NCBI GenBank assembly: GCA_023336205.1
Contig: JALQCR010000035.1
Span: forward strand, 2,930 to 66,929
Source: Pseudanabaena sp. Salubria-1
GTDB taxonomy: Bacteria; Cyanobacteriota; Cyanobacteriia; Pseudanabaenales; Pseudanabaenaceae
Reading direction: 5' to 3'
DNA: 64,000 nt
Notes under the pieces: generated by a model
Database searches by the model: none
Seen by the model: the letters and a program-made list of their open reading frames with translations, nothing else
Told to the model about the DNA's origin: nothing
Made by a program: the position numbers and the translations under genes
Part shown: positions 30,580 to 31,115 of the stretch, piece after piece
Layout: every line of letters starts with the position of its first letter
How positions within the stretch are numbered: the first letter of the stretch is position 1

Positions 30580-30942
30580 ATGTATCAAACTGAATTTCCA
30601 TTTACTTTGCCGCACGGCTATATTGACTCTGAAGGATGCTTGCATCGAGAGGGCGTTATGCGACTCTCCAGAGCTACAGATGAAATTACGCCACTCCGCG
30701 ATCCTAGAGTACAGAAAAATTCAGGGTATCTAGTGATTATTCTATTAGCAAGGGTAATCACTAGAATTGGTACGATTGAGCAACTCAACACTAAAATTAT
30801 AGAGGAGCTGTTTTCTGGTGATTTGGCATATCTTCAGGATTTTTACCAACGGATTAATCGAAACGGCCATACGAGATTTCGAGTTGCTTGTCCCCATTGC
30901 AACGGTGAATTTGAGGTAGAAACTGCCTCAGTGGGGGAGTAA
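30580..30942 (+). CDS. Putative tail assembly chaperone (lambda gpG-like position)
   Basis: FPFTLPHGYIDSEG.LHREGVMRL...DLAYLQDFYQRIN...CPHC; directly follows the tube gene. Confidence 0.8.
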   Translation: MYQTEFPFTLPHGYIDSEGCLHREGVMRLSRATDEITPLRDPRVQKNSGYLVIILLARVITRIGTIEQLNTKIIEELFSGDLAYLQDFYQRINRNGHTRFRVACPHCNGEFEVETASVGE

Positions 30943-31115
30943 CATGCTACCCCCACAAGCGTTTGCTAGAGGAGGTAGCATATCTTTCCTATCATTTTCA
31001 TTGGTCTTATGACAATGTACTAAATATGGAGCATTGGGAACGGCAACAATGGGTTTCGCAAGTTGCTCAGATTAATCAACAAATTAACCAACAATCAAAT
31101 CACGGTCGTTCATGA
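30933..31115 (+). CDS. DUF6760-like coding frame in the -1 frame of the chaperone gene; not in the ORF track
   Basis: GGVTCYPHKRLLEEVAYLSYHFHWSYDNVLNMEHWERQQWVSQVAQIN...*; no start codon ahead of the conserved YP motif. Confidence 0.75.
   Translation, partial: GGVTCYPHKRLLEEVAYLSYHFHWSYDNVLNMEHWERQQWVSQVAQINQQINQQSNHGRS

Follow-up and report, generated by a model that had tools for sequence, protein, structure and literature searches.

A probable programmed −1 frameshift joining a tail assembly chaperone to DUF6760 in a cyanobacterial contractile injection system

Introduction

How is a conserved protein domain translated when its reading frame offers no place to start? This question is raised by a stretch of 64,000 nucleotides (nt) from Pseudanabaena sp. 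Salubria-1 (assembly GCA_023336205.1, contig JALQCR010000035.1, positions 2,930 to 66,929 of the forward strand), hereafter called the window, whose own numbering is used throughout. Within a gene cluster for a phage-tail-like contractile injection system (CIS), a small open reading frame (ORF) ends in a run of five G residues followed by a stop codon, and an overlapping frame encodes a domain of the DUF6760 family. A preliminary description of the window had read the upstream ORF as a tail assembly chaperone and had proposed that some ribosomes slip back by one base on the G run, as in the G/GT genes of phage lambda. A conserved −1 frameshift in the tail assembly chaperones of tailed phages, with lambda gpG/gpGT and P2 gpE/gpE+E′ as examples, was reportedly described by Levin, Hendrix and Casjens in 1993 and by Xu, Hendrix and Duda in 2004.

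Database annotation treats the Pseudanabaena pair as two genes. We found no paper describing DUF6760, or frameshifting or a tail assembly chaperone in extracellular contractile injection systems, in a library of literature that is itself incomplete. Comparison of the locus with its relatives makes it highly probable that a programmed −1 frameshift on the G run links chaperone and DUF6760 in one protein, much as in lambda G/GT, which would explain why the DUF6760 reading frame has no start codon.

A reading frame without a start

The upstream ORF closes with the codons GTG (30931-30933), GGG (30934-30936), GAG (30937-30939), and TAA (30940-30942), and the run of five G residues occupies 30933-30937, just as the preliminary description had it. 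The −1 frame opens at 30915, after a TGA at 30912-30914, and closes with a TGA at 31113-31115. It comprises 66 codons, where about 60 had been estimated, and its translation begins GRNCLSGGVTCYPHKRLLEEVAYLSYHFHW... (also given as GRNCLSGGVTCYPHKRLLEEVAYLSYHFHWSYDNVLNMEHWERQQWV...). What had been called a DUF6760-like domain passes the Pfam threshold for DUF6760 (PF20546) with an E value of 2.3e-15 and 56.8 bits, the curated gathering cutoff being 27. The match spans 30948-31100, and its first codon, that of a Tyr at 30948, corresponds to position 5 of the profile; members of the family therefore normally begin only about four residues before this Tyr.

Between 30915 and 30962, the −1 frame contains neither ATG, GTG, or TTG nor a near-cognate codon with one mismatch. 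Its sole ATG, GTG, or TTG is the TTG at 30963, which lies within the conserved motif, while the ATG at 30944 is a third-frame codon followed by an open stretch of only about 22 codons. In both respects the earlier account is borne out. The predicted trans-frame product has 178 amino acids (aa), in line with the roughly 180 that had been expected.

Conservation of the junction

A six-frame search for DUF6760 was positive in 36 of 401 cyanobacterial genomes, and 31 cyanobacterial loci were fetched for comparison. The zero frame reads xxG GGG GAR in every one of them, with DUF6760 always in frame −1, and a zero-frame stop follows 0 to 1 codons past GGG GAR in 29. The amino acid specified just before GGG is Val, Ser, Leu, Ala, Met, Pro, or Glu, and yet the third base of its codon is G in all 31 loci, which points to a constraint at a position whose amino acid may vary.

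A scan of species-representative genomes returned 587 relatives, of which the best 80 were used. These derive from Cyanobacteria, Chloroflexota, Myxococcota, Acidobacteriota, Actinomycetota, Proteobacteria, and the archaeal Methanoperedens, Methanosarcinales, and Methanothrix, and in all 80 of these best relatives DUF6760 is in frame −1 of a conserved upstream ORF (the ORF being +1 relative to DUF6760). Pooling gave 109 distinct loci from bacteria and methanogenic archaea, the set to which the following counts refer. Conservation of the overlap and of the slippery run, which the preliminary description had named as a check on its proposal, was found nearly throughout: DUF6760 is in frame −1 in 109 of 109 loci, the junction has five or more consecutive G residues in 108, and in 106 of these the heptamer is in register. 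The majority form is G_GGG_GAR, seen in 77 loci (GGGGGAG in 41, GGGGGAA in 36), and 29 more have G_GGG_GGA (17) or G_GGG_GGG (12), the run reaching six to eight G residues in some loci. Of the three loci with other heptamers, two have a longer G run that lies slightly farther upstream, by a few bases, and the third, L071, lacks a run. A zero-frame stop lies 0 to 1 codons past the heptamer in 101 loci. In some loci the open part of the −1 frame begins just one or two codons ahead of the G run, and the zero frame ends directly behind the run; with so narrow an overlap in several loci, the G run is the one site shared by all loci at which a change of frame is possible.

The same genome has, on another contig, a second, diverged chaperone/DUF6760 copy (about 50% identical). 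Its zero frame reads ...GCA TCG GGG GAA TCA TAG, and DUF6760 is again in frame −1 without a start before Tyr-Pro. Judged by its recurrence in 108 of 109 distinct loci and in this paralogue, the arrangement is far beyond chance. Frameshifting on the G run, as the preliminary description had proposed, is thus supported by the frame relation, conserved across phyla and between bacteria and archaea, the G run, and the stop, together with the hairpin described below.

In locus L010 (G206:C1), upstream of position 1486, the expected frame is open for only 86 codons, and the N-terminal part of the chaperone continues in a different frame. The ORF looks broken, which points to a frameshift mutation or to an error in the sequence of this genome.

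The run of five G residues at 30933-30937 and a run of five C residues at 30950-30954 flank the junction of the window, and one C fewer would put ATG 30944 in frame with DUF6760. The junction could accordingly be read as a homopolymer error in either run, as a recent frameshift mutation, or as a true start at ATG 30944 concealed by an error in the C run. We regard this as extremely unlikely. An independent Pseudanabaena assembly that is 97% identical (L032) has the same run lengths, and so do the paralogue and 108 of 109 loci, which come from different projects; a sequencing error was rejected on these grounds. A start at ATG 30944 combined with a +1 shift or a C-run error was likewise discarded, as this ATG is not conserved; L011 has TCTGC and L016 has TTTGC at the corresponding position.

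A hairpin behind the slippery site

Downstream of the heptamer lies a feature absent from the preliminary description, a predicted RNA hairpin (30944-30981) of −18.1 kcal/mol, with a z score of −3.9 against shuffled sequences, which begins 4 nt past the heptamer. A hairpin beginning 4 to 6 nt past the heptamer is predicted in nearly all loci. In the window its stem pairs AUGCUACC.CC with GG.GGUAGCAU, that is, codons for Cys-Tyr-Pro with codons for Glu-Glu-Val-Ala; across loci, x-Tyr-Pro codons (GCUACCCC) are paired with Glu-Glu-Val-Ala codons (GGAGGUAGC).

Statistics for the hairpin were taken from an ungapped alignment of 90 junctions. Third codon positions have an entropy of 0 to 0.59 bits in the stem, versus 0.87 to 1.74 bits just downstream. 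The stem uses TAC in 86 junctions, CCC in 81, GAG in 80 and 86 at its two Glu positions, and GTA for Val in 87, high-GC Myxococcota and Actinomycetota included. The closing pair (columns 25-60) links the synonymous third position of the Ala codon with the first position of the codon that precedes Tyr. It occurs as four Watson-Crick types and is paired in 61 of the 90 junctions, 43 being expected, and none of 5000 shuffles, a control that ignores phylogeny, equaled 61. The eight core pairs of the stem are invariant, and their support therefore comes from synonymous-site conservation and not from covariation.

A homopolymer placed exactly at the junction, and extended to six to eight G residues in some loci, could also cause RNA polymerase to stutter and add one G to a fraction of the mRNAs, which would then be read through into DUF6760. 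Known transcriptional slippage needs longer runs, typically seven to nine or more A or T residues, and the majority form here, with five G residues, falls short of this. A conserved hairpin 4 to 6 nt downstream and a nearby stop codon would have no role in such a process, whereas they fit ribosomal frameshifting. Slippage during transcription is in our judgment very unlikely.

Initiation as an alternative

The DUF6760 protein might instead be made separately, by reinitiation after termination at the TAA, or from TTG 30963 or a noncanonical codon, the G run acting as a Shine-Dalgarno-like element, and the hairpin gating the start. In nearly all loci the zero-frame stop does lie only a few bases away from where the DUF6760 frame begins, databases and Pfam handle DUF6760 as a stand-alone protein, and 21 of the 109 loci have an ATG or GTG two to three codons past the run, often in an ATGA overlap. 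L071, a Holophagales metagenome-assembled genome (positions ~1490-1515), even retains a start after the junction in the absence of a G run. Its junction reads GGGACGATGATG; an in-frame ATG ATG overlaps the upstream TGA, and the hairpin is still present.

In the window, however, 30915-30962 offers no start of any of the kinds considered above. Homologues with clean starts and no conserved overlap, which the preliminary description had set against its proposal, are not what the comparison returned: in 70 of 109 loci the −1 frame reaches the Tyr codon without any ATG, GTG, or TTG, and in 55 of the 90 aligned junctions no canonical start occurs up to column 60. Nor is TTG 30963, the codon that the earlier account had itself put forward as a possible independent start, a conserved one. 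It was rejected, since just 12 of 90 junctions have TTG as this Leu codon and a protein begun here would lack the invariant Tyr-Pro. Between the G run and the candidate codons lie 0 to 3 nt, a spacing too short for Shine-Dalgarno function, and archaea, as well as phyla in which Shine-Dalgarno sequences are little used, retain the run too. Separate initiation of DUF6760 is thus an unlikely explanation of the locus. Independent initiation would seem to be a fallback in a minority of loci and not in this window, and the L071 lineage looks to have replaced frameshifting by coupled initiation.

Several points weigh against frameshifting. They include the 21 loci with a start shortly after the run and the case of L071. 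The heptamer does not conform to X_XXY_YYZ, and re-pairing in the A site requires a central G:U pair. GGGGGA and the stem encode Gly-Gly, Tyr-Pro, and Glu-Glu-Val-Ala, so that their conservation is partly confounded with that of these residues, and the covariation control, as said, disregards phylogeny. There are, furthermore, rare natural single-ORF fusions of the chaperone to DUF6760, including P0003, P0005, P0010, and P0011, which may be homopolymer assembly errors rather than true fusions; one of them sits on a contig with other frame problems. Their junctions, ...LGGVTRYP..., match the predicted trans-frame sequence and in this respect speak for the frameshift.

Separately, P0020 (248 aa, from a JGI metagenome) has two tandem chaperone domains, each with a CxxC tail, and ends ...PGE without a DUF6760 part.

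Predicted mechanism

From the anatomy, conservation, and homology of the pair, we infer the following course of events, including the slip itself, its efficiency, the residue at the junction, and the binding partners. Most ribosomes would translate 30580-30942 and stop at the TAA, yielding the 120-aa tail assembly chaperone. A fraction would pause on the hairpin with the heptamer (30933-30939) in the decoding sites, and the adjacent stop codon perhaps also stimulates the slip. In a backward slip of one base, tRNA-Gly would re-pair from GGG to GGG and tRNA-Glu, if already bound, from GAG to GGA with a central G:U pair. Slipped ribosomes would go on in the −1 frame to 31115 and produce a protein of 178 aa, composed of the chaperone and a three-helix DUF6760 domain. 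There are two candidate 178-aa products, one junction residue apart, ...SVG-G-VTCYP and ...SVG-E-VTCYP; a slip of the P-site tRNA alone would give the junction ...ETASVGGVTCYPHK and a tandem slip ...ETASVGEVTCYPHK. If the analogy to lambda G/GT and P2 E/E+E′ carries over, a tape-measure-like protein would be held by the chaperone part and tube subunits would be recruited by the DUF6760 part, the efficiency of the slip fixing the ratio of short to long form.

On a broader scale, we lean toward the view that the chaperone and DUF6760 together form an unrecognized, near-universal core gene of one large clade of bacterial and archaeal contractile injection systems. It would be expressed through an ancient −1 cassette of G run and hairpin derived from phage tails, and Tyr-Pro...Glu-Glu-Val-Ala would be conserved partly because its codons form the stimulating stem. 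If true, these codons are a case of dual coding, for a protein motif and for an RNA signal.

The preliminary description had called the slippery site atypical. The label fits insofar as the heptamer departs from X_XXY_YYZ, but in a set of about a thousand annotated chaperone frameshifts in actinophages GGGGGAA is the only sequence of the “five-two” motif class (PRFect, PMC10885494), and the GAR form is also the majority form here. Because GGGGGAA recurs in this way, the site is noncanonical but not unprecedented. Allowing a G:U pair, as that paper proposes, lets tRNA-Glu re-pair with GGA (PMC10885494). The actinophage motif and the site in the window share the heptamer type, five G residues and an A, and the gene class; they differ in the A-site codon (GAA versus GAG) and in distribution (actinophages versus Cyanobacteria and many other phyla). 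The actinophage frameshifts are SEA-PHAGES annotations (PMC10885494) and for the most part have not been mapped biochemically either. If frameshifting occurs as proposed, the five-G-plus-A motif works far outside actinophages.

Identity of the two parts

The upstream ORF matches PHROG 508, “tail assembly chaperone,” with an E value of 8.2e-5. Its paralogue matches PF10109 (Phage_TAC_7, the P2 gpE/Mu gp41 family) with an E value of 7.9e-5 and 23.1 bits, just under the 25-bit cutoff, close homologues carry the NCBI label “phage tail assembly protein,” and 10 of 45 chaperone homologues have weak Pfam matches to PF12322 (T4_baseplate). On the strength of these sequence matches, we assign the upstream ORF as a tail assembly chaperone. 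Searches of Pfam and NCBIfam with the window chaperone itself returned no significant family, and tblastn with it against 50,697 phage records gave no match.

An AlphaFold2 model of the chaperone is confident, with a predicted local distance difference test score (pLDDT) of 86. A Foldseek search with this model against the PDB found nothing significant; the highest TM-scores belonged to the HK97 chaperone 2ob9 and to YqbN 3klu, both chaperones, neither match being significant. The model of the single-ORF fusion P0003 (pLDDT 88) has a disordered linker where the slip would occur, between the chaperone domain and a DUF6760 domain of three helices that is predicted with confidence. Its best structural matches in BFVD are T4-like baseplate hub assembly proteins (E 5.7e-6 to 4.9e-4), targets of ~260 aa with low TM-scores of 0.33 to 0.37 over ~120 aligned columns. 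Such proteins (PF12322) were reportedly proposed by Vladimirov, Gautam, and Davidson in 2022 to be the tail assembly chaperones of T4-like phages, which, going by the title of that work, are said to use a mechanism other than frameshifting. Among 21 DUF6760 members, 9 match PF06528 (Phage_P2_GpE, the P2 gpE′ extension domain) weakly, with a best E value of 0.0098 and all below threshold.

The spike plug Cis6/Afp6/Pvc6 is likewise a small protein encoded among tube genes; Cis6 has been described for the Anabaena system, and the tCIS structure includes a partial atomic model of it (Weiss et al. 2022, PMC8894136). Profile searches of the PDB with DUF6760 and with the chaperone found nothing relevant and no chain of the contractile injection system structures. 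Neither profile finding any solved CIS chain, DUF6760 was rejected as a candidate for Cis6/Afp6 and is taken to be a different protein.

Gene neighborhood

The genes around the pair make up a complete phage-tail-like injection system (Table 1). The chaperone and DUF6760 follow a tube gene and are followed by a second tube gene and then by a large protein without a family match. Lying amid these tail genes, the pair probably occupies the position where tailed phages keep their frameshifted assembly chaperone.

Table 1. Features of the junction and of the surrounding injection system genes, in window coordinates
Feature	Coordinates	Strand	Basis
Pvc16-type cap	25866-26447		
Sheath gene 1	27540-28859		
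Sheath gene 2	28903-30081		
Tube gene, Phage_T4_gp19 family, directly 5′ of the chaperone	30128-30568	+	Pfam PF06841, E 1.7e-42
Short chaperone form (zero-frame ORF), 120 aa, with C-terminal CPHC zinc-ribbon-like hairpin	30580-30942	+	Translation, PHROG 508, AlphaFold2 model
−1 frame open stretch, 66 codons plus stop, without usable start	30915-31115	+	Sequence, Pfam
Putative slippery heptamer G_GGG_GAG (zero-frame codons GGG 30934-30936, GAG 30937-30939)	30933-30939	+	Sequence and conservation
TAA, zero-frame stop directly 3′ of the heptamer	30940-30942	+	Sequence
Predicted stimulatory RNA hairpin	30944-30981	+	Fold, synonymous-site conservation, covariation
Second tube-family gene, downstream of the chaperone/DUF6760 pair	31500-31955	+	Pfam PF06841, E 1.3e-35
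Low-complexity protein, 1046 aa, candidate tape-measure partner of the chaperone (by position only)	32029-35169	+	Position
Tube-initiator/LysM gene	35160-35807		
Hub	35867-36934		
Spike	36931-37638		
gp25	37638-38024		
Baseplate_J genes	38058-41672 and 41676-42662		
P2 gpI-like gene	42644-44530		
Spike tip	44551-44979		

The likeness to lambda G/GT and P2 E/E+E′ is one of architecture: a small gene just behind the tube gene, a startless second ORF in frame −1, a slippery heptamer ending the first ORF, and, as predicted here, a short and a long product. The differences are several. The window gene belongs to a phage-tail-like injection system and not to a phage, its heptamer is G_GGG_GAG, as against G_GGA_AAG in lambda and T_TTT_TTG in P2, and is succeeded by a strong conserved hairpin, the first ORF ends in a CxxC zinc-ribbon-like tail, and a second tube gene separates the chaperone from the presumed tape measure. 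Similarity of the window parts to phage families is at or below thresholds at the sequence level. The mechanism would be the familiar one of tailed phages, brought along together with the tail module.

The proposal assigns a function and a mode of expression to DUF6760, a family of unknown function, and its value lies chiefly in the annotation and engineering of injection particles. Thousands of loci are called as two genes, or with an arbitrary start for DUF6760, and could be corrected. The parts list of contractile injection systems would gain a tail assembly chaperone with a fixed, predicted ratio of short to long form. For reconstitution or engineering of particles, recoding such as codon optimization would abolish both G run and hairpin, and the long form could be lost unnoticed.

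A perfect palindrome of about 50 nt (31329-31378) lies within the 384 nt that separate the DUF6760 stop from the tube gene downstream. Related copies occur at about six other sites in the same genome, and on that account it looks like a small dispersed hairpin repeat. The Rfam search found no family at the frameshift site and gave just weak, sub-threshold matches of microRNA models on this unrelated palindrome.

A second pair outside a tail locus

The 1046-aa protein downstream of the second tube gene matched no Pfam or NCBIfam family. It has no similarity to the 998-aa protein adjoining the paralogous chaperone, though both are of similar size and both stand beside a chaperone gene.

The paralogous pair (L114; G000:C27:59000-78900, positions 6849-10370) lies outside any tail locus, with no tube or sheath gene within ~10 kb on either side. 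Its chaperone has 104 aa, lacks the CxxC tail, and stands directly behind the 998-aa protein, which has no family match; an AAA ATPase with a winged-helix domain is encoded on the opposite strand. The short subfamily to which this chaperone belongs is also present in L019, L020, L023, and L027, with the G run and the hairpin retained.
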